64,000 nucleotides of DNA from a bacterium (GTDB taxonomy: Bacteria > RBG-13-61-14 > DATKZS01), in NCBI GenBank assembly GCA_963674965.2, contig CAXXFL010000005.1, positions 192,001 to 256,000 on the forward strand, written 5' to 3'. This document shows positions 2,257 to 58,346 of the stretch, in pieces. The translations under genes and the position numbers were made by a program. The notes below the pieces were generated by a model, which worked only from the letters and a program-made list of their open reading frames with translations, was not told where the DNA came from and searched no databases. The number at the start of each line of letters is the position of its first letter. Positions within the stretch are counted from its first letter, which is position 1.

Positions 2257-5200
2257 GTGAATCCAAGGTTTCTCGGTTTTGCCCTTGTCGCGCTTATGGC
2301 GCTCGTCTTTCCTCTTTCTTCCTTGGCCCAGGACTCGGACGGCGACGGAATGCCGGACTGGTGGGAAAACACCTACTTTTGCGTCAACGTCTCGGTGGCC
2401 GATTCCCTCGGGGACCCGGATATGGACGAGCTTGCCAACATGGGCGAGTACCTCCAGTCGACCAACCCCTGTTCCGCCGACTCGGACTTCGACCAGATGC
2501 CGGACGGATGGGAGGTCGATAACGGCCTCAACCCCAACGGCAACGACGCCTCGGGCGATCCGGACTCGGACCAGTTCACCAACCTTCAGGAATACAACGC
2601 CGGGTCCGACCCCCAGGACCCGGGTTCATTCCCCCTGCCGGTCATAACCTCGATCGTGCCCGAGACCATCGAGGCCGGAAGCACGGCCACGATCGATATC
2701 TATGGCGCCAACTTCAACGCCGGGGCCAGGATACTTTTCGGGGAAGGCGTTATTTTCGACGGCGACACGGTGCTCGGCTCCGGGCACATGCAAGCCCAGA
2801 TCGAGATCGAGGAAGACGCTCCCGTGGGTTTCATTACCGTCAAGGCGCTTAATGAGACCCCCTACCCGGCCATGGGGCCCGTTTATATCAACAAGCTCTA
2901 CGTCACCCGCCTGGGCATGAGCGTGACCCTTTCGCTAGAAGGGCCCGAGTCCGCGGGCGAGTGGGAGTTCGGCATGGTCGTATCCGATATCGGCAACGTG
3001 GACGGCGACTCTTATAGCGACGTGCTGGTGGGCAGGTCGCAGACGGCCTTCGCTTCGGTCTATTCCGGCGTTGACGGAAGCTTGATCTATTCACTTTCCG
3101 ATTATAACTGGGGTGAGGGCAAGGCCGCGGCGAGCCTGGGAGACATAGACGGCGACGGGCGGGACGACTTCGCGGTCGATGACGGCCAGACGGTGGTCGT
3201 GTACAGCGGGATCGACGGCGACACGATAAACGCCTTCCAGTTGGAGGACGCCAACCACCATTTTCTCAGCCTCGAGTCCATCGAGGACATGAACTCGGAC
3301 GGCAAGAGGGACCTTCTGGTGGGTAACTACGCCTGGAATTTTCCATACCAGAGCTACTTATACGGCAAGGTTTACGCCTACGACGTGGACCCTTCAAACG
3401 GCGACACCCTGCTCGATTCCTATCGCCCATGGTACGGCGGCGTGGAGTTTTTCGGTTGGGACGTAACCTCCATCTCCCGCGCCGGCAGGGACGACGTGGT
3501 CGTCGGGGCGATCCACGACCAGCAGGACACAAAGATGGACCAGTGTGGGGCCATACACGTCATGGCGGGCCTGGACGGAGCGACCCTTTTGGAAATGGCC
3601 GGCGACACGGCCTACCGGCTGCTGGGGTATTCCGTCGCGGGCATCGAGGACCTTGACGGAGACTCGGTGGGCGACTTTATCGCGGGCGGCCCGGGGAATT
3701 ACGACTTAAGCAACCTCGAGTCCCACGTCTACGTGTTTTCCGGCGCCGACGGCTCGACCATTCTCGATATAGTGGGCGAGGGAGGACAGGGGTCCTTCGG
3801 CATGGCGGTCGACGCCATCGGAGACTTGAACGGCGACGGCAAACAAGATATCGCCGTGGGATGCCGTTTTTGCCAGACGCCCCAAAAAGAGCCGGCCGGG
3901 GGAGTGTATTTTTACTCCGGCGCCGACGGGTCGCTTCTTTACGCGTCCTACGGCCTGAGCGACGAGAGCTGGTTCGGATACGACGTGGCCAACGGCGGAG
4001 ACATTGACGGCGACGGCAATGACGACCTCATCGTGGGCGCGCCGAGAGACGCTCCCGGCGGCAAGGTCCACGTGCTGGCCAAGGACACCGACGGCGACGG
4101 ACTCACCGACGGAAAAGAGAGTCTTTTCGGCACGAACGCCAACCATCCGGACACGGACCACGACGGCATGACCGACTATTACGAGTACGTCTCGGGCCTG
4201 AACCCGCTGGTTGACGACGCGGCCCTGGACCTCGACGGGGACTCGATCACGAACCTTGACGAGTTTCTTTTCGGGTCCAACGCCTCGATGGTGGACACCG
4301 ACTCGGACGGAATATCCGACCTGGTCGAGTATACCTGGAGCCGATGGGGAGCGGGCGGAAGTCCCGCGACTCGGGACTCGGACGGCGACGGGATTATTGA
4401 CCCGATCGACAACTGCTCCAATTACAACCCCGACCAGGCTGACGCGGACGACGACGGGATCGGCGACCTCTGCGACGAGGGGGGCTATTATTACTCGAAA
4501 AGCGGCGCGGCCTTCGGTGACTGGTTCGGATACTGCATCGGCGGGGGTGGAGACGTAAACAAGGACGGCGTGAACGATTATATTATTTCGGCCCAAAAGG
4601 CCCGAATCGTGGACCAGGACTCGGGCCGGGCCTACGTTTTCTCCGGCCTGGACGGCGAGACCTTATTTCAGATAGACGGGGACACCGCTTTCGCTCGGGC
4701 GGGTTTTTTCGAGAGCGCCGCCATTCTCGGCGACCTTAACGGCGACGGATACGACGACTTCGCCGTGGGTCACGGCTCGATAGGAGCGGGGCCGGCGGAG
4801 CAAGGATACTCCGTTTTTTACTCCGGGTTTGACGGCTCGACCCTTGATATTAACGGCCAATCGGGAGATTATTTCGGGAGCCAGATCACGCCCCTGGGCG
4901 ACGTGGATGGGGACGGGATTCCCGACGCCGTCATTGGCACGCGTTCCGCCTATATCCATTTTTTTTCCGGTTACGACCGCGTCAACTATTGGCTCATGCA
5001 GTTTCTCGACGGCAGGCGCTTCGGGTGGGACATGGCCAACGCCGGCGACGTGGACGGGGACGACTTTAACGACTTCGTCATCAGCTACCAGGACAAGCTC
5101 TACGTCAATGATTACCTGGCGGCTTACTCGACGGGCGACTACTCCCAGATATTCCTCAAGGAGTTCACCGACCTCGATCTGGTCCACGTGGACGGCCTGG

Positions 5201-50828: not shown

Positions 50829-51683
50829 TCAAGCCGCGGTCTCGGGACCGGGGCCGCCCTCGCCGATGGTTACCCGCCTTAGCTCGCCCTTGTTCGAGGT
50901 CTTGACCGCGTACATTAAGTTATCGGCTTCCTTGATCGCGTCTTGAGGGGAAGATGGAGCAGAAAGATAAGTCACCAGACCCACGCTGAAGGTCACCGGC
51001 CAGCCGCCTCGGCTCATGGCGTCCTCCAGTTTGGACCTTAGCCTTTGCATCGCCTCCATCGATTCTTCCTCCCCGGTCTCCGGAAGAAGAAGGGCAAACT
51101 CGTCGCCGCCCATCCGGGCGCCAAGGTCGGTGGACCGGATATCGCCCCGGATCGTTCCTCCCACCGCCGCCAGGAGCCTGTCGCCCTCGGGATGGCCGAA
51201 CTTGTCGTTAACGCTCTTGAAGTTATCCAGGTCGATATAGGACAGGGAAAGGGGACGCGAGTAGCGCCTGGCCCGCTCCAGCTCGAGATCGAGCCGCTCG
51301 GTGAAACCCACCCGGTTGGATATGCCCGTCAGGGGGTCCATCCTCGAGAGAAGGTACTCCCGGTCCAGGGCCTGCCTGATACGGGAAAGGGAGAAAACCA
51401 CGATCACGAAAAAACCGAACCTGACCCCCGCGTTCCAATAAAGAATGACCGCCGCGTCGTACTCGTGGCCGCTGAGGCGGTCCACCAGCGCCCAGGAGAA
51501 CATGCCTAAGATCGACATGAAGAACCCCGGCCACCGACCCACCAGCCAGGTCACCAGCGCGATGGGGATCAAATAGAAAATCGAGAAACTGAGTTGGTAA
51601 CCCGTGATATAGTCCAGAAGTCCCACCAGCCCCGTGAGTAAAATCCCGAGCGCCGAATATATTACGACTTTCCAATCCATCAT
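50829..51683 (-). CDS. Membrane-bound diguanylate cyclase (GGDEF)
   Basis: N-terminal TM segments, DPLTG, DLDNFKSVND and RSTD..ARMGGDEF motifs. Confidence 0.92.
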   Translation of the reverse strand: MMDWKVVIYSALGILLTGLVGLLDYITGYQLSFSIFYLIPIALVTWLVGRWPGFFMSILGMFSWALVDRLSGHEYDAAVILYWNAGVRFGFFVIVVFSLSRIRQALDREYLLSRMDPLTGISNRVGFTERLDLELERARRYSRPLSLSYIDLDNFKSVNDKFGHPEGDRLLAAVGGTIRGDIRSTDLGARMGGDEFALLLPETGEEESMEAMQRLRSKLEDAMSRGGWPVTFSVGLVTYLSAPSSPQDAIKEADNLMYAVKTSNKGELRRVTIGEGGPGPETAA

Positions 51684-51821
51684 GAAACCGCCCCTAAAAA
51701 TGCCCCCTCGGGCCAAGAGCCTCTTTAGAGCCGAGGCCGACGAGAAAGCCTAAAAATTTTAGCACGAACGGGCAATATATGGTAGATAATGGACACCTCC
51801 CTATTAGAACGTCCTTTCGGC

Positions 51822-51850
51822 TTGACACTATAAGGCCCGCGTCCTAAAGT
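51822..51850 (+). promoter_or_regulatory. Putative sigma70 promoter, near-leaderless for the V4R gene
   Basis: TTGACA-N17-TAAAGT, 10 bp before ATG 51861. Confidence 0.5.
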
Positions 51851-51860
51851 CATCGGTGAA

Positions 51861-52601
51861 ATGGAACGGGGCAAGCGTTTACAGGTTAAGATACTCACTC
51901 CGGTAATGGAATTCCTCGAGAGGCGTCCGTTCCCGGTCACTTCCATTTTGAGGCTCCTGGCCAACGCGCCTTTCCTCTCGAGGAGACTGATGGTGCTGCC
52001 GCGGGCCTATATGGGGGCCTCGGCCTTCGAGATTCACGACGCGGACATGAAAACCGGGCGAATAGGCATCGGGGACGTCGAGGAGATCATGGCCGGCTCG
52101 AAGATCATCCATCTCCTGCACCAGACCCTGGCCGGCCGCGTGGGGGAAGAGGAAAAGAACCGGGCACTCTACGAGATGGGCGCGAGCCTTTGCAAGTGGG
52201 AGGTGAGCCAGGCCCTGGAGGGCGGCAAGTGGGCCCCCTCCGTCCTCGTTCCCCTCATCTTCAGCGGGAGGGTCCTGGACGAAATCGAGACCGACCCTCT
52301 TATGAGGCGCTTTTTCCAGAGCGTGATGAACATGATGAGCAGGCTGATCACCGACGAGGGGGGATGGGGTCACCTGGACTTCGATTTTTCCTCCCTTCCC
52401 TTCAAGGTCATGCTTTCCAACTCCCAGGAGGCCCGGTGGCTGGGAGGGTCCGACCGGCCCGTTTGCCATTTCTACGCGGGCATAGTGGCGGGCTACGCCT
52501 CGACCATCTCGGGCAAGCCCTTCCTCTCCCGTGAGGTCGCCTGCAAGGCCATGGGCGCCCCCAAGTGCGTTTTCGAGCTGACGCCGGCGGAAGATGAATA
52601 A
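51861..52601 (+). CDS. V4R (4-vinyl reductase)-domain protein
   Basis: GWG, NSQEA, PVCHFYAG and EVACKAMGAPKCVF motifs. Confidence 0.85.
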   Translation: MERGKRLQVKILTPVMEFLERRPFPVTSILRLLANAPFLSRRLMVLPRAYMGASAFEIHDADMKTGRIGIGDVEEIMAGSKIIHLLHQTLAGRVGEEEKNRALYEMGASLCKWEVSQALEGGKWAPSVLVPLIFSGRVLDEIETDPLMRRFFQSVMNMMSRLITDEGGWGHLDFDFSSLPFKVMLSNSQEARWLGGSDRPVCHFYAGIVAGYASTISGKPFLSREVACKAMGAPKCVFELTPAEDE

Positions 52602-54057
52602 CGGGTCCGTCTCACCGCGTAGGAATACCCCCGGGGTATGGGGTTTCCACCCGGCCTCGACGGTGCTTCTCGCCTTCATGGCTTTTTTTCTTACCTCATG
52701 GGGCGGCCGTCCTCGTCCCGACCATATCCAGGGCGAGATGGCGGGCGAGGTCACGGCCTCGAGCGTCATACTTCAGACCCGGCTTACGGCGTCCTCGCCG
52801 CTGCCCGACAAAGACGTGCCCGGCGTCGAGGGTGAGGTCAGGTTCGAGATCGACACGGACCCGGCCTTTCCCGACCCGATAAGGACCGAATGGATGAAGG
52901 CCGTCGAGGAAAGAGACCACGTGGTCAAAAAGAAGATCGAGGACCTGAAGCCGGACGTCCTTTATTACTACCGGATCGAGTTCGGTCCCGGCCGTTCCGA
53001 CGCTAAGAAGGGACCGGCGCGGAGGTTCCGGACCTTGCCGGGCCCGGCTACCTCTCGTCCTTACCGCCTGGCGGTGGTCACGTGAATGAACTGGGACAAG
53101 TTCCAGTTCGGGACCAGGGCTTACAAGGGGGCGGACAAGGACCTGGGCTTTCCCGCCCTGGCGGCCCTGCGCGAGGCCCGGCCCGAGTTCATCGCCTTCA
53201 CGGGCGACAACGTCTATTACGACCACGGCGTTCCCGCCTTCACCGAGCGCTCGATGCGCCGCAAATGGCGCCGGACCTTTTCCTTTCCCCGCATGGTCGA
53301 GTTGATGGCCGAGGTCCCGGCCTACTGGCAAAAGGACGATCACGATTACCGCTATAACGACTGCGACAATACGGGAACCATGCCGCCTTCTCCGAGGCTG
53401 GGGCAAAGGATTTTTCTCGAACAGGTCCCGGTCATGGACCCGGCCCTTCCCCCGGCCCGGCCCTACCGGACCCACCGGGTGACAAGGGAACTCCAAATCT
53501 GGCTTCTCGAGGGAAGGGACTATCGAAGCCCCAACCGGCAAAAGGACGGACCAGACAAGACCATGTGGGGACTCGAGCAGAGAAAGTGGCTCACCGAATC
53601 CCTGTCCGAGTCCGACGCGGCCATCAAGCTAATCGTCTCGCCCACTCCCCTGATCGGGCCAGACGACGCCTATAAGCGCGACAACCACGTCAGCCCCGAG
53701 GGTTTTGGCCACGAGCGCGACCTGTTTTTCGCCTGGGCCAAGCAAAAGGGACTCGATAAAAAGGGGATGTACATAATCAATGGAGACCGGCACTGGCAGT
53801 ACCATTCCCGCCACCCGCTGGGCTTCGAGGAGTTTTCTGTCGGGACCCTCCACGACGCCAACGCCAGGATGGGCGTTGCCCCGGGCGATAAAAAGGGAAC
53901 TGACCCCGAGGCCGAAATCGAGCAATTCTACTCTTCCCCCGAGCCGTCGGGCGGGTTCTTGCTGGCGACGGTCATTCCCGACGGGACGGGCCAGGCCTCG
54001 CTCCTCCTCGAGTTCATGGACGAGCGGGGCAAGCTCATGTATAGGGTCGAGCGCTGA
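52594..54057 (+). CDS. Alkaline phosphatase D (PhoD)-family protein interrupted by one in-frame TGA at 53083-53085 (selenocysteine candidate or pseudogene)
   Basis: The PhoD_N part (GEVTASSVILQTRL, YYYR, RFRTLP) is in frame with the catalytic part (GDNVYYD, DDHD, GRDYRS, Q..WL, NGDRHW). The junction reads AVVT-TGA-MNW. Confidence 0.8.
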
Positions 54058-54173: not shown

Positions 54174-55976
54174 CTATTTCTCGAGTTTGCATCCCTTGGG
54201 AACGCGCCTGGTCGCCGGCTTCTTTTTGCCTTTCTTCCCGGCGGCCTGGCTGTTCTCGGGCCGCCACCATCCCAGTCGCTTGGTAATGGGAAGGCGAAGG
54301 TCGGAAAGGGCCCTTTCCGAGACGGTGGGACCGATGGGACACTGCCGCCTCTTGAACTCTGCCTTCATCAGCATCCTCATAATCGTATAAACCATGGCCG
54401 GGTCCTCGCCCCCCGCCACCATCTCCTCGACCGACATGCCCTTCTCGAGAAAACCCTCGAGCACTCGGTCCAGGTCGTCGTAGGGAGGGAGGGTGTCCTG
54501 GTCCTTCTGGTTCGGCCGGAGCTCGGCGGTGGGCGCCCGCTCGATGACGCTTTGGGGTATAACGTCCTTGCCGGCCTTGGCGTTATACCATTTCGCCACC
54601 TCGTAGACCTGCCTCTTATACAGGTCGACCAGGGGAGAGAAGGCCCCGCAGGTGTCGCCGTAAAGCGTCGAGTAGCCCACCGCCGCCTCGCTTTTGTTGC
54701 CCGTGGCCAGGACCATGGCTCCCAGCTTGTTAGAAAGCGACGTCAGGGTAAGCCCTCTCAGCCGGGCCTGAAGGTTTTCCTCCGTCACGTCCGCCTCCCT
54801 GCCGGCGAAGGCCTTGGCGAAACTTTTCACCGCCGCGTTGTAACACGGCTTGATGGGTACCTCGAGGAACTGAAGGCCCAGGTTTTTCGCCGTCTTTTTC
54901 GCGTCGGCCCTGGTCTCGCCCGAGGTGTAAGGGCCGGGCATGGACACGGCGGTCACGTTCTCGGGCCCGAGGGCCTCCCGAGCCACGGCGGCGGTAAGCG
55001 CCGAGTCGATCCCCCCAGATAATCCCAGGATGACGCGCTCGAATCCGTTCTTGCAAGCGAAATCGCGGGTGGCCAGGACGAGAGCGGAAAAGAGTTCCCT
55101 TTGTCCCTTGTGAAGCGGCTCGATGCGGGTATCGAGCGCGGCCGGCTTCTTCTTTTCCCTCGGCGCGAAGTCCAGCGTAATCCGGTCGGCCTTGCCCACT
55201 CTTCTCGGGGCCCTCCTGCTCGAGTGATAGGTCCTTTTTCTGTGCGACCTTAGCTCATCGAGGTCGAGGTCGGCCATGACCAGGTCCTCCGCGAAGGACT
55301 TGCCTCGGGCGATCACCTCGCCCCAACCGTCAACTATGGTGCTCGAGCCCTCGAAGATCGCGTCGTCCTGTCCCCCGACCGGGCCGACCATGACCACGGC
55401 CGCCGCGTCCTCCCTGGACCGCTCGATCATCAGGCCCTCCCTGACCGGCCGGTGGCCGAAATGGTAGGGCTCGTTCCAGAGGTTGACCAAAAGGTCTATC
55501 TCCGTGGGCCAAAGAGGATAGCCCGCGTCGTCGCCCACCGTCACCGCGGCCCGGAACCAATCCGTCTCGATCAACAGCGGCCTCTCCCCCGCCGAGAAAT
55601 AGCGCGTCTCGTCAAAGCGGCCGCAACAGAAAAGGTAGCGCTTCCTGGCCCATCCCAGAGACTTGCCTTTATAGAGCACGGCGGCCGCGTCGTGGAGGGC
55701 GTCGCCCGTCTCGATGCCTCCGACTATGACCAGCATGTCGGTCCTGGCCAGGCCTCGGGCTATCTTGTCCATGGACTCGGCGCACTCCCGCAAAAAGGAA
55801 CCCCGGAAGGCCAGGTCCTCGACCATGTACCCCGAGACGCACATCTCGGGAAAAACCAGAAGCTCGACGCCATGGGAGCGGGCCCGGCTTGCCACCTCGA
55901 GGATTTTTTCCACGTTGCCCTCGAAGTCGCCCGCTCGGGAGTTTATCTGTCCTATTCCTATCCTTAAAGACGTCAC
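54174..55976 (-). CDS. nadE: NAD+ synthase with an N-terminal nitrilase-like domain
   Basis: FPEM, GLSGGIDSA, ENLQARLRG, TGNKSE, GYSTLYGD and PTAELRPNQKD motifs. GTG start at 55976 chosen from the RBS. Confidence 0.93.
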   Translation of the reverse strand: MTSLRIGIGQINSRAGDFEGNVEKILEVASRARSHGVELLVFPEMCVSGYMVEDLAFRGSFLRECAESMDKIARGLARTDMLVIVGGIETGDALHDAAAVLYKGKSLGWARKRYLFCCGRFDETRYFSAGERPLLIETDWFRAAVTVGDDAGYPLWPTEIDLLVNLWNEPYHFGHRPVREGLMIERSREDAAAVVMVGPVGGQDDAIFEGSSTIVDGWGEVIARGKSFAEDLVMADLDLDELRSHRKRTYHSSRRAPRRVGKADRITLDFAPREKKKPAALDTRIEPLHKGQRELFSALVLATRDFACKNGFERVILGLSGGIDSALTAAVAREALGPENVTAVSMPGPYTSGETRADAKKTAKNLGLQFLEVPIKPCYNAAVKSFAKAFAGREADVTEENLQARLRGLTLTSLSNKLGAMVLATGNKSEAAVGYSTLYGDTCGAFSPLVDLYKRQVYEVAKWYNAKAGKDVIPQSVIERAPTAELRPNQKDQDTLPPYDDLDRVLEGFLEKGMSVEEMVAGGEDPAMVYTIMRMLMKAEFKRRQCPIGPTVSERALSDLRLPITKRLGWWRPENSQAAGKKGKKKPATRRVPKGCKLEK

Positions 55977-56249
55977 TTTAGACGACCCCCTTTTTGCGTT
56001 TACCAATTTTGCCCGGCTTGCCTCGGGACGCGGCGCTCCCGACTTGAGAAAAGCGGCATATACAATGTACTATGGACTTGGCTCGGCGGTCAAGAATTTC
56101 CCGGCCCCGGACTCGATTTGCCTCGCGTCGGGATAACGGGTATACAGGATTTAATGGACTGAAAACGGCCTCGCCGCGGACGGGACCGGCCGCGATCAAG
56201 GCGCTCTTCTTTCAGGGATGGCCGCTCGGTGGACGACTCGGACTTTTAA

Positions 56250-58346
56250 ATGGGACTTGGAAGCCGCATAAAGAACGACACTTTTCTCCGCTTTACCCTG
56301 GCCCAACTGGGTATAACCGCCAGTGGAGTAGTAGTGCTTGCCGTCATCGGCCGGCTGGCCGTGCCGGGCATTACGGACTTCTGGCTCGAGTTCATTCCCC
56401 GCGCCGCGGCGGTGGCGTTCGTGCTCGGCGTCTTCGCCGTGGCCATGGTCTTTAAACAGAACCAGATACTTCGAGTCCTGTCTCGGCATGGGGCCTCGGG
56501 CAAGCTCTCAGATAAAACGTGGGAGGAAATCAAGAAGGCCGCCTGCGACCTTCCCCAGCGGCTCATGGTCCTGACCCTCATTGTATGGCCCTTATTCGCG
56601 GGACTGACTGGATTATGGACCTGGGCCTCGGGTTTCATCACCCTTGACGAGGCGATAAGGACCGGCCTTTGCGGGCTATTATATTGCCCCATCCAGGCCA
56701 CTCTCCTGTTTTATTTCTCCCGCTACAGCCTGCGGTCGATGATCGGCGCCTTTTCCGGACAGGGCGTGTCATGGTTCTCCGAGCGAAGGGGGTTCATGGG
56801 CCTTAAGCCCAAACTCATCATGAGTTACGCCACTCTGGCCGTTTGTCCTCTTTTCGCGGGCATACTGTTGAGCGAGGTGCAGACGGAAAGGCTCGAGCTG
56901 CAAAGGGGCCTCGAGGGAGCGGGCAAGGCCCTGGACTACATGGCCGAGCAGGGGGCCACCAGGTCCCTGATGGGCAGGTGGGAGGGCGCGGTGGCGGGCG
57001 CGGCCTACGAGCTTAAGCTGGGGGAGGGCACGAGGTTCCAGCTTTCCCGTCCGCCCGACAAGCTTCTGGCCGGCGAGGTCAAGGATGACGAGAAGGACAA
57101 GTGGCTGGGGGTGATATCGAGGGAGCCGGTGGATGGATACGTATCCGTCCGGGTACCGGGTTCGAGGCGGTACATGGTGTTCAAGTATTTCCCGGAGGAC
57201 GAGGTATGGCTTAGCGTCTCGACCGACCCTTTTCCTTCCCGGGCCAATATCTTTAAGCGTCAGGGGGCGACCTTTTTATTGGCGGTGATCATCTTCGTCA
57301 TTTCCATCGCCATGGGATACCTGGCGGCGGAGGACGTGGTGACCCCGGTGCGTCTTCTGGCCTCGGCGGCGGGCAAGGCCTCGCGAGGAGATTACGAGGA
57401 GGTCGAGGGTTTCCTTTCCGACGACGAGCTTAGCGACCTGGCCATGGGCTATAACGTCCTGGTCGCCTCCATCAGGCGGGAGTTGAAAAGGGCGAACCAG
57501 GTTTCCGTGAGCATAAGGAAAGTGGTGTCGGGACTCTCGGAGCAGGCGGACCGGATCAGGGGACTGGCCGACCAGGAAAGACAGGTCATCGACGAGCAGA
57601 ACGCCCTGGCGGAGGGCGCCGAGTCGCGGGCGGAGCTTATCTCCCAGGCGTCCGAGTCCATAAGCGACGGGGCCCGCGCCACCAAGATTAAGATGGACGA
57701 GGTTGACGAGGCCTGCCTGGCGGCGGCGGTGGACCTGGCCAAGCTTTCCGAGGCGGCCCGGGGGGCGGCCGAGGCCAACCAGACGATCCACGAGGAGATG
57801 GAGGACCTCGAGCGCAACTACGAGACCATGGAGGACGTGGTGGGCCTGATCGAGGAGATCGCCGACCAGGCCGAGCTTCTGGCCCTGAACGCCGAGCTCG
57901 AGGCGGCGGGAGCGGGAGAGGGCGCGTCGCGCTTCATGGTGGTGGCCACCGAGATGAGGCGCCTGGCGATAAGGACCTCCGAGCAGACGAGCTGGATTCG
58001 GGAGCTTTTTGAGGCGCTCCGGGAGTCCAACTTCAAGATGGTCCAGTCCATCGAGACGGGCAGAAAAAAATCGGCCATGGCGCCCCAGCGGGCGGAGGGA
58101 CTCAAGGAGGGCTTGAAAAAAATCCAGGAACGCTCGAGCCTGGCCTCGGACTCGATGATCGACATCGTCGAGATGACGGACAAGCAAAGCGGCTCCCTAG
58201 GCGAGATGAAGAGCATCGTCATCGAGATAAGGACCGCCGCCAAGATAATGGACGAGGTTGGCCTGGGCGCGGAAAAAGCGGTCAAGAAGCTTAACGAGCT
58301 CTCGGACAACCTGAACCTTCTCGTCTCGAGGTCGGAGGATGAATAA
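56250..58346 (+). CDS. Methyl-accepting chemotaxis protein (multi-TM N-terminus, HAMP)
   Basis: DDELSDLAMGYN (HAMP) and IADQAELLALNAELEAAGAGE..RFMVVATEMRRLA signalling tip. Confidence 0.88.
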   Translation: MGLGSRIKNDTFLRFTLAQLGITASGVVVLAVIGRLAVPGITDFWLEFIPRAAAVAFVLGVFAVAMVFKQNQILRVLSRHGASGKLSDKTWEEIKKAACDLPQRLMVLTLIVWPLFAGLTGLWTWASGFITLDEAIRTGLCGLLYCPIQATLLFYFSRYSLRSMIGAFSGQGVSWFSERRGFMGLKPKLIMSYATLAVCPLFAGILLSEVQTERLELQRGLEGAGKALDYMAEQGATRSLMGRWEGAVAGAAYELKLGEGTRFQLSRPPDKLLAGEVKDDEKDKWLGVISREPVDGYVSVRVPGSRRYMVFKYFPEDEVWLSVSTDPFPSRANIFKRQGATFLLAVIIFVISIAMGYLAAEDVVTPVRLLASAAGKASRGDYEEVEGFLSDDELSDLAMGYNVLVASIRRELKRANQVSVSIRKVVSGLSEQADRIRGLADQERQVIDEQNALAEGAESRAELISQASESISDGARATKIKMDEVDEACLAAAVDLAKLSEAARGAAEANQTIHEEMEDLERNYETMEDVVGLIEEIADQAELLALNAELEAAGAGEGASRFMVVATEMRRLAIRTSEQTSWIRELFEALRESNFKMVQSIETGRKKSAMAPQRAEGLKEGLKKIQERSSLASDSMIDIVEMTDKQSGSLGEMKSIVIEIRTAAKIMDEVGLGAEKAVKKLNELSDNLNLLVSRSEDE

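Follow-up and report, generated by a model that had tools for sequence, protein, structure and literature searches.

The stretch of bacterial DNA considered here (the window: 64,000 nucleotides, positions 192,001 to 256,000 of contig CAXXFL010000005.1, assembly GCA_963674965.2, GTDB lineage RBG-13-61-14; DATKZS01) carries on its forward strand a gene for a PhoD-like phosphatase (52594..54057; 487 codons with an internal TGA read through) whose internal UGA is probably decoded as selenocysteine (Sec). A preliminary description of the window had proposed that two open reading frames (ORFs) form a single frame broken by this codon alone, and the DNA and its translation confirm it: ORF 52594-53085 encodes 163 residues, ends in RLAVVT and is closed by the TGA at 53083-53085, and ORF 53086-54057, in the identical frame, encodes 323 residues beginning with MNWDKF. 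The TGA is the sole interruption of 52594-54057, with no further stop or frameshift. In this genome TGA also serves as an ordinary stop codon, because the phosphatase gene itself terminates with one (54055..54057, forward strand). Protein-database annotation cuts the gene into two ORFs (P0122 and P0002), and by this split the organism would otherwise be scored as having no intact PhoD-family gene; the genome has no PhoD-family gene other than this one.

The read-through product has the organization of an exported metallophosphatase. Its first 38 residues (52594..52707, forward strand), assigned by eye as an export signal region, comprise a basic SPRRN followed by the hydrophobic STVLLAFMAFFLTSW, and an AlphaFold model places a helix at residues 20-35 within them; hydrophobic leaders are also present at the N-termini of homologues, and the phosphatase is putatively secreted. 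A PhoD_N domain follows (52738..53034, forward strand, residues 49-147; Pfam PF16655, E 1.6e-12, 48.2 bits) and then a match to the PhoD catalytic (metallophosphatase) domain (53068..53835, forward strand, residues 159-414; Pfam PF09423, E 1.1e-17), which extends across the TGA at 53083-53085. Both domains score above the Pfam gathering cut-offs in the read-through product (64.7 bits for PhoD, cut-off 27; 48.2 bits for PhoD_N, cut-off 30). The model of this product, built with 27 homologues as input, has a mean predicted local distance difference test score (pLDDT) of 86.5 and a predicted template modelling score (pTM) of 0.85; its top match in the PDB is 2yeq_A (PhoD; E 7.8e-27, TMq 0.68), with purple acid phosphatases next. 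In the model, residue 164, the residue encoded by the internal TGA, comes immediately after strand 157-163 (RLAVVT), which is the first strand of the catalytic domain.

The putative metal-site residues D205 and Y208 (GDxxY), D248-D249-H250, N255, and D398 and H400 (GDxH) all stand in invariant columns of the 27-sequence alignment. They would correspond to D207, Y210, D265, D266, N272 and D436 of Bacillus subtilis PhoD, a correspondence drawn from the motifs; the phmmer alignment is unreliable around GDxxY. Tyr-210 of that enzyme we take to be the tyrosine ligand. Against the NCBIfam equivalog model for PhoD, NF058638, the product scores 45.7 bits, far below the curated cut-off of 1000, and by its sequence the phosphatase is a member of the wider PhoD family, outside this B. 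subtilis-type equivalog.

The internal TGA is supported by the sequencing data. Logan contigs from runs X1 and X2, which derive from one sample, contain the TGA and match the gene along its full length, with 0 differences and a word depth of 15-18; X1 and X2 are probably the source of the assembly itself and hence provide no independent confirmation, and X3 and X4 have no coverage of the codon. The contigs of X1 and X2, assembled separately, agree, which excludes a chance assembly slip as the origin of the TGA. It had been cautioned beforehand that TGA lies one substitution from TGC and one from GGA, and this holds, such that a single wrong base in sequencing or assembly could have hidden either as the true codon; the agreement of the contigs of these two runs (same sample), at that depth and with no differences, and the break found in other data sets (below) make such an error extremely unlikely.

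In phmmer alignments, codon 164 stands opposite a Cys in two solved chains, that of FAFASCQQ (2yeq_A) and that of VVSCANW (9uya_A). The chain 2yeq_A starts at precursor residue 57, and therefore its Cys124 is Cys-180 of B. subtilis PhoD, the Fe3+ ligand, whose replacement (C180A) destroys activity according to PMC4223295. The UGA (53083..53085, forward strand; proposed Sec164) thus aligns with a metal-ligating Cys, as the preliminary description had it, and because of this location Sec164 would likely be a selenolate metal ligand. Among 146 fetched loci aligned over the column, some of which are duplicates of each other, the residue is Cys in 102, Gly in 38, Ala in two, Ser in two, a gap in one and TGA in one, the gene itself. 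Cys and Gly swap several times across the tree, and a search for residues co-varying with Cys versus Gly gave nothing useful, with a weak signal only at column 257.

Two further observations concern the Gly-bearing relatives. A large clade of PhoD-like proteins, putative phosphatases (P0003-P0173 and L007-L148), has an invariant Gly (VVTGMNY) at the position of Cys-180, which is puzzling because the C180A replacement abolishes the activity of B. subtilis PhoD. Separately, a contig from a delta-proteobacterial metagenome-assembled genome (L091) carries, at about 2400-3200, a PhoD homologue with at least two frame switches across its N-terminal domain, which look like long-read assembly error or a decaying gene; its codon for the Gly at the column is GGA.

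The stop at the column recurs in other sequences. A search with the 163-residue N-terminal ORF against proteins of 89-286 residues gave 10 matches, including the window's own protein. The best four of the 9 non-self matches (P0123-P0126; 50-66% identity) stop cleanly one residue before the column, with the C-terminal ends LAVTT, LAVVT, LAVVT and LAVIT; of the remaining matches, P0127-P0131, two were inspected, and P0127 reads on through VVTGMNY whereas P0128 ends in unrelated residues. We regard the endings of the four as true stops, because a frameshift would have added scrambled residues to the end, and it is not credible that three contigs should all break off at one codon. One of the four, P0124, comes from a 7819-nt Joint Genome Institute (JGI) contig that, to judge by its equal length and source, also encodes P0010, a protein of 321 residues that is 73% identical to the downstream ORF and begins with the same 15 residues (MNWDKFQFGTRAYKG); scans with P0010 of metagenome contigs (66 loci) and genome contigs (74 loci) did not return this contig. 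A tree calculated with IQ-TREE (quick, LG+G4) from 55 rows picked by hand unites the five stop-bearing rows in a single clade (SH-aLRT 92), which sits in a well-supported group (98) together with Gly-type genes of two genomes from the same taxonomic family. The window's protein and the joined P0124+P0010 are 67% identical over 471 columns, and each retains all 81 invariant columns of the 27-sequence alignment, which rules out recent decay. To judge by these sequences, the stop at the column is old and maintained.

No other TGA was found at the column among the 146 aligned loci or in all 13 genomes of the phylum. Some further candidates were set aside. The metagenomic ORFs P0141, P0146, P0154 and P0157, which start exactly at M165, belong to Gly-type lineages and were not counted as stop variants, because their 90% clusters contain full-length Gly forms and because any break in the Met-free upstream stretch shifts the gene caller's start to M165; such starts may have come about through breaks in the upstream sequence data, or these may be additional stop variants. 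P0203, from a Cys-type lineage, ends just before the Cys column and was likewise not counted: it is an NCBI 'partial' coding sequence on a 1087-nt contig, and one such ending is expected by chance since 97 short fragments were inspected.

The genome is equipped for Sec. A search of it for selA, selB, selC and selD, suggested in the preliminary description, found all four: selA (C4:210275-211363), a SelB winged-helix domain in a 651-residue frame ending at about C4:213352, and tRNA-Sec (selC, anticodon tca; C4:213395-213490) are clustered on contig 4 (C4:210275-213490), and selD is present with an in-frame TGA of its own. Of the 13 genomes of the phylum, 8 have SelA, as do all five of the taxonomic family. 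At least eight other genes of the window's own genome (G000) have an in-frame TGA in known selenoprotein families: selD, fdhA, an FlpD/MvhD gene, three of seven AhpC-TSA (peroxiredoxin) matches, a Rdx/SelW-like gene and a CMD/AhpD-like gene. These TGA-bearing genes lie at C1:1052858, C3:524265, C1:1608108, C3:241590, C4:98843, C4:167771, C7:956044 and C1:10695. None of the six thioredoxin matches in this genome has an in-frame TGA. In a relative's genome (G001) two selA matches of equal score (G001:C41:14185-15279 and G001:C42:18298-19392) possibly come from a contig duplicated in that assembly.

Two overlapping hairpins can be drawn after the UGA. The model for the bacterial selenocysteine insertion sequence (bSECIS), as set out in PMC13188914, has a stem of 4-16 bp, a loop of 3-9 nt with a G at loop position 1 or 2, a distance from UGA to loop of 16-37 nt, and an energy of -7.5 kcal/mol or lower. 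Hairpin A (53088..53109, forward strand), with the 9-bp stem GAACUGGGA/UUCCAGUUC and the loop CAAG, exists as had been described and is the minimum-energy fold; its energy of -11.8 kcal/mol is ordinary for this base composition (z -1.08, with equally good folds in 30 of 200 shuffled sequences), and as a bSECIS it fails on loop and spacing, because the loop begins 11 nt after the UGA and has no G in its first two positions. The alternative fold proposed alongside it fares better: hairpin B (53100..53114, forward strand), GUUCC-AGUUC-GGGAC with 19 nt from UGA to loop, lies within the model for stem (5 bp), loop (AGUUC) and spacing, and is our candidate for a SECIS (selenocysteine insertion sequence) apical stem-loop. 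A lower stem is possible in which 53091-53093 pairs with 53115-53117.

Hairpin B resembles a hairpin elsewhere in the genome. A qualifying hairpin follows the UGA in all eight other selenoprotein genes, against 19% of 1500 random genome positions. In the AhpD-like gene (C1:10695-11357) it is CUCCC-AGUUC-GGGAG, 16 nt after the UGA, and its 11-nt core CCAGUUCGGGA is the same as that of hairpin B. Orthologues of the AhpD-like gene in genomes G003, G007 and G011 keep the stem and have the loops AGUUU, AGUUU and GGUUC, giving an xGUUy loop in the four orthologues examined (two further orthologues, missed by the search pattern, lay outside the comparison). One peroxiredoxin gene (prx3) has a hairpin with the loop AGUU, and its G003 orthologue, though only 56% identical in protein, carries the identical hairpin. 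Across the genome two types of post-UGA loop can be told apart, GGUC-like (fdhA, two peroxiredoxins and Rdx) and AGUU-like (one peroxiredoxin and the AhpD-like gene).

Conservation around hairpin B is of the kind that an RNA signal would leave. Residues 165-179, whose codons contain both hairpins, are identical (15/15) between the two full-length stop-bearing members, though variable across the family. Fully identical stretches of this length number 5 of 429, the other four lying in a family-wide motif, and stretch 165-179 has the lowest family conservation among the 28 stretches with at least 14/15 identity. An overlapping RNA signal predicts such identity, and the pattern suggests one, two sequences being too few for certainty.

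The preliminary description proposed that the gene could encode a Sec-containing PhoD, and in sequence terms that reading is supported: those of its suggested checks that were run turned out in favor, with the TGA in the contigs of two runs, the sel machinery, the Cys-180 column and the recurrent stop, and of its two hairpins it is hairpin B that fits a bacterial SECIS. Several observations weigh against it. The first group concerns the column. The nearest stop-free relatives have Gly there, not Cys: in the near 'MN(Y/W)' subfamily, 144 of 150 full-length homologue proteins have Gly and 6 have Cys; two loci from the same taxonomic family, L007 (GGG) and L008 (GGC), both encode Gly; the stop clade is nested inside Gly rows (support 98 for the set of nine); and TGA is one base change from GGA. 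The classic close pairing of Cys and Sec is accordingly absent, because the near relatives carry Gly. A caveat given earlier, that some PhoD-like proteins may have Gly here, is well borne out by the 144 homologues. The second group concerns the signal. P0123-P0126 are known from their protein sequences, and their stop may be a codon other than TGA. Hairpin B reaches -5.1 kcal/mol by itself and -7.0 once the lower stem is added, just short of the model's threshold of -7.5, and in free RNA hairpin A outcompetes it (pair probability about 1e-4). The six genome copies of the 11-mer CCAGUUCGGGA, only two of which follow an in-frame TGA, compare with about 4.4 expected, and preferred codons for FQFG yield the same 11-mer, as in a gene resembling cydA. 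The Rfam SECIS models gave no match at the UGA site; this blank is uninformative, because in a control they matched one of six known selenoprotein genes (fdhA), at 29.9 bits and below the gathering threshold of 63. Lastly, the UGA directly abuts an AUG and has GGUGG 8 nt upstream, and coupled translation of two ORFs is possible.

Another reading takes the gene for a pseudogene, or for a Gly-type PhoD in which GGA has recently mutated to the nonsense codon TGA. One changed base would be enough for it, the closest stop-free relatives have Gly, and L091 does use GGA. Set against this, four sequences of 50-66% identity stop at that very column and group with this gene in a single clade, every family-invariant residue is kept in both halves at 67% overall identity, and there is no second stop or frameshift in what is the genome's sole PhoD-family gene. 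We consider a pseudogene very unlikely.

A conserved stop is equally compatible with Sec and with a stably split gene, in which translation would terminate at the UGA and re-initiate at the adjacent AUG, and the two pieces would assemble without residue 164. The preliminary description had pointed to a weak GGTGG before ATG 53086, and the GGUGG is indeed placed where it could support such coupling; loss of the residue is possibly tolerated, as relatives have Gly, with no side chain, at position 164. M165 is invariant in unsplit relatives also, however, and therefore its AUG is ancestral and no new start. In the model, a split would cut the catalytic domain where its first core strand ends, and with the export leader on the upstream ORF only, the leaderless catalytic piece would be expected to remain in the cytoplasm; by eye, the leaders of P0123 and P0126 have no twin arginine. 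A split gene also leaves unexplained both the SECIS-type hairpin in common with the AhpD-like gene and the coincidence with the ligand Cys column, and we regard it as improbable.

UGA is the leakiest of the bacterial stop codons, and it is conceivable that a near-cognate tRNA (Trp, Cys or Arg) reads through it without selenocysteine, possibly to hold expression low; hairpin A, directly after the codon, could promote such read-through. That explanation has to contend with the presence of the complete Sec system and, at a suitable distance from the codon, of a SECIS-type hairpin, and Trp or Arg would be hard to fit at a column otherwise occupied by Cys, Gly, Ala or Ser. It too seems to us a poor prospect.

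Decoding of the UGA as Sec is thus the interpretation that we favor with good confidence: the locus probably represents a genuine clade of Sec-containing PhoD proteins, with a functional phosphatase gene whose internal UGA would be translated as selenocysteine. The following mechanism can be envisaged. The phosphatase gene would be transcribed together with the V4R-domain gene upstream of it (see below), and the nascent chain would carry an export leader. A ribosome arriving at the UGA would melt the 5' arm of hairpin A and so release 53100-53114; hairpin B could then form just beyond the mRNA channel, with its AGUUC loop as the predicted site for SelB carrying Sec-tRNA. Sec164 would be inserted by the SelA/SelB/tRNA-Sec/SelD system, and in the folded enzyme its selenolate would bind at the Fe3+ site as the thiolate of Cys-180 does in B. 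subtilis PhoD. We lean somewhat, and with much less assurance, toward a wider proposal: that the phosphatase is the first known member of a Sec-containing family within the metallophosphatase superfamily, being an exported hydrolase, not a redox enzyme, with selenolate-bound Fe3+, that arose in a lineage that had gone from Cys to Gly, selenium restoring the lost ligand and making phosphorus scavenging selenium-dependent.

The surroundings of the gene add some context. Directly upstream lies a gene for a V4R-domain (small-molecule-binding) protein (51861..52601, forward strand; Pfam PF02830, 60.9 bits), whose 3' end overlaps the start of the phosphatase gene by 8 nt (ATGAATAA); a promoter-like site stands upstream of it at 51822-51850, and from this arrangement the two genes are probably co-transcribed as one operon. 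Further out are genes for a GGDEF diguanylate cyclase (50829-51716, reverse strand), a glutamine-dependent NAD+ synthase (54174-56006, reverse strand) and a methyl-accepting chemotaxis protein (56250-58346, forward strand). There are no phosphate-regulon genes among these neighbors, and the V4R and NAD synthase genes were found beside no fetched homologue.

That PhoD was not known to be a selenoprotein family, as the preliminary description remarked, agrees with what we found in the literature and in NCBIfam. Titles and the starts of abstracts revealed neither a PhoD with Sec nor a selenoprotein phosphatase of any other kind, a search that did not cover supplementary selenoproteome tables, which could list one. 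The terms phosphatase, PhoD and phosphoesterase are absent from the main text of PMC13188914 (a 2026 review that includes a table of prokaryotic selenoprotein families) and from the main text of PMC12013277 (the deep-Sep paper); in PMC2398784 the sole mention of a phosphatase is a PP2C fusion. NCBIfam, which has many selenoprotein models, gave only the sub-threshold PhoD match. The clade is therefore probably a new selenoprotein family that uses standard machinery, and it is unusual in having a hydrolase as the host of Sec and in branching from within Gly-type, not Cys-type, relatives. The selenoproteins known so far are almost all oxidoreductases; a Sec-containing PhoD, if true, would place selenium in a hydrolytic phosphate-scavenging enzyme as a ligand of redox-inactive Fe3+, and would offer chemists a natural series of Sec, Cys and Gly (selenolate, thiolate and no ligand) at one metal site.

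Among known systems, B. subtilis PhoD (2YEQ), an Fe3+/2Ca2+ enzyme with phosphodiesterase and phosphomonoesterase activity, is the best structural match and has the same PhoD_N and PhoD architecture. The GDxxY, DDH and GDxH metallophosphatase motifs are retained here, but identity in the structural alignment is only 18%, the match stops well short of the C-terminus of the 2YEQ chain, and the protein described here belongs to a distinct subfamily, 'MN(Y/W)', most members of which have Gly at the ligand column, here a UGA. A PhoD would be expected to have, at the end of the first strand, a thiolate (Cys-180) or carboxylate (Asp) ligand to Fe3+; here a TGA codon stands in its place, which would supply a selenolate if read as Sec. 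Replacement of a metal-binding Cys by Sec has precedents in FdhA (Mo/W) and in [NiFeSe] hydrogenase, both of which rely on a UGA, a downstream hairpin and SelB as proposed for the phosphatase, and the genome's own fdhA has a Sec site of this metal-ligating type. These two are redox enzymes, whereas PhoD is a hydrolase, with an Fe3+ that is redox-inactive according to PMC4223295. The closest likeness in the RNA is with the AhpD-like (CMD) selenoprotein, motif HCVGU, whose hairpin has in common with hairpin B the loop and closing pairs CCAGUUCGGGA at a spacing of 16 rather than 19 nt; it belongs to an unrelated family with a redox CxxU, and its hairpin lies within the minimum-energy fold, in contrast to hairpin B, which has the more stable hairpin A as a competitor.

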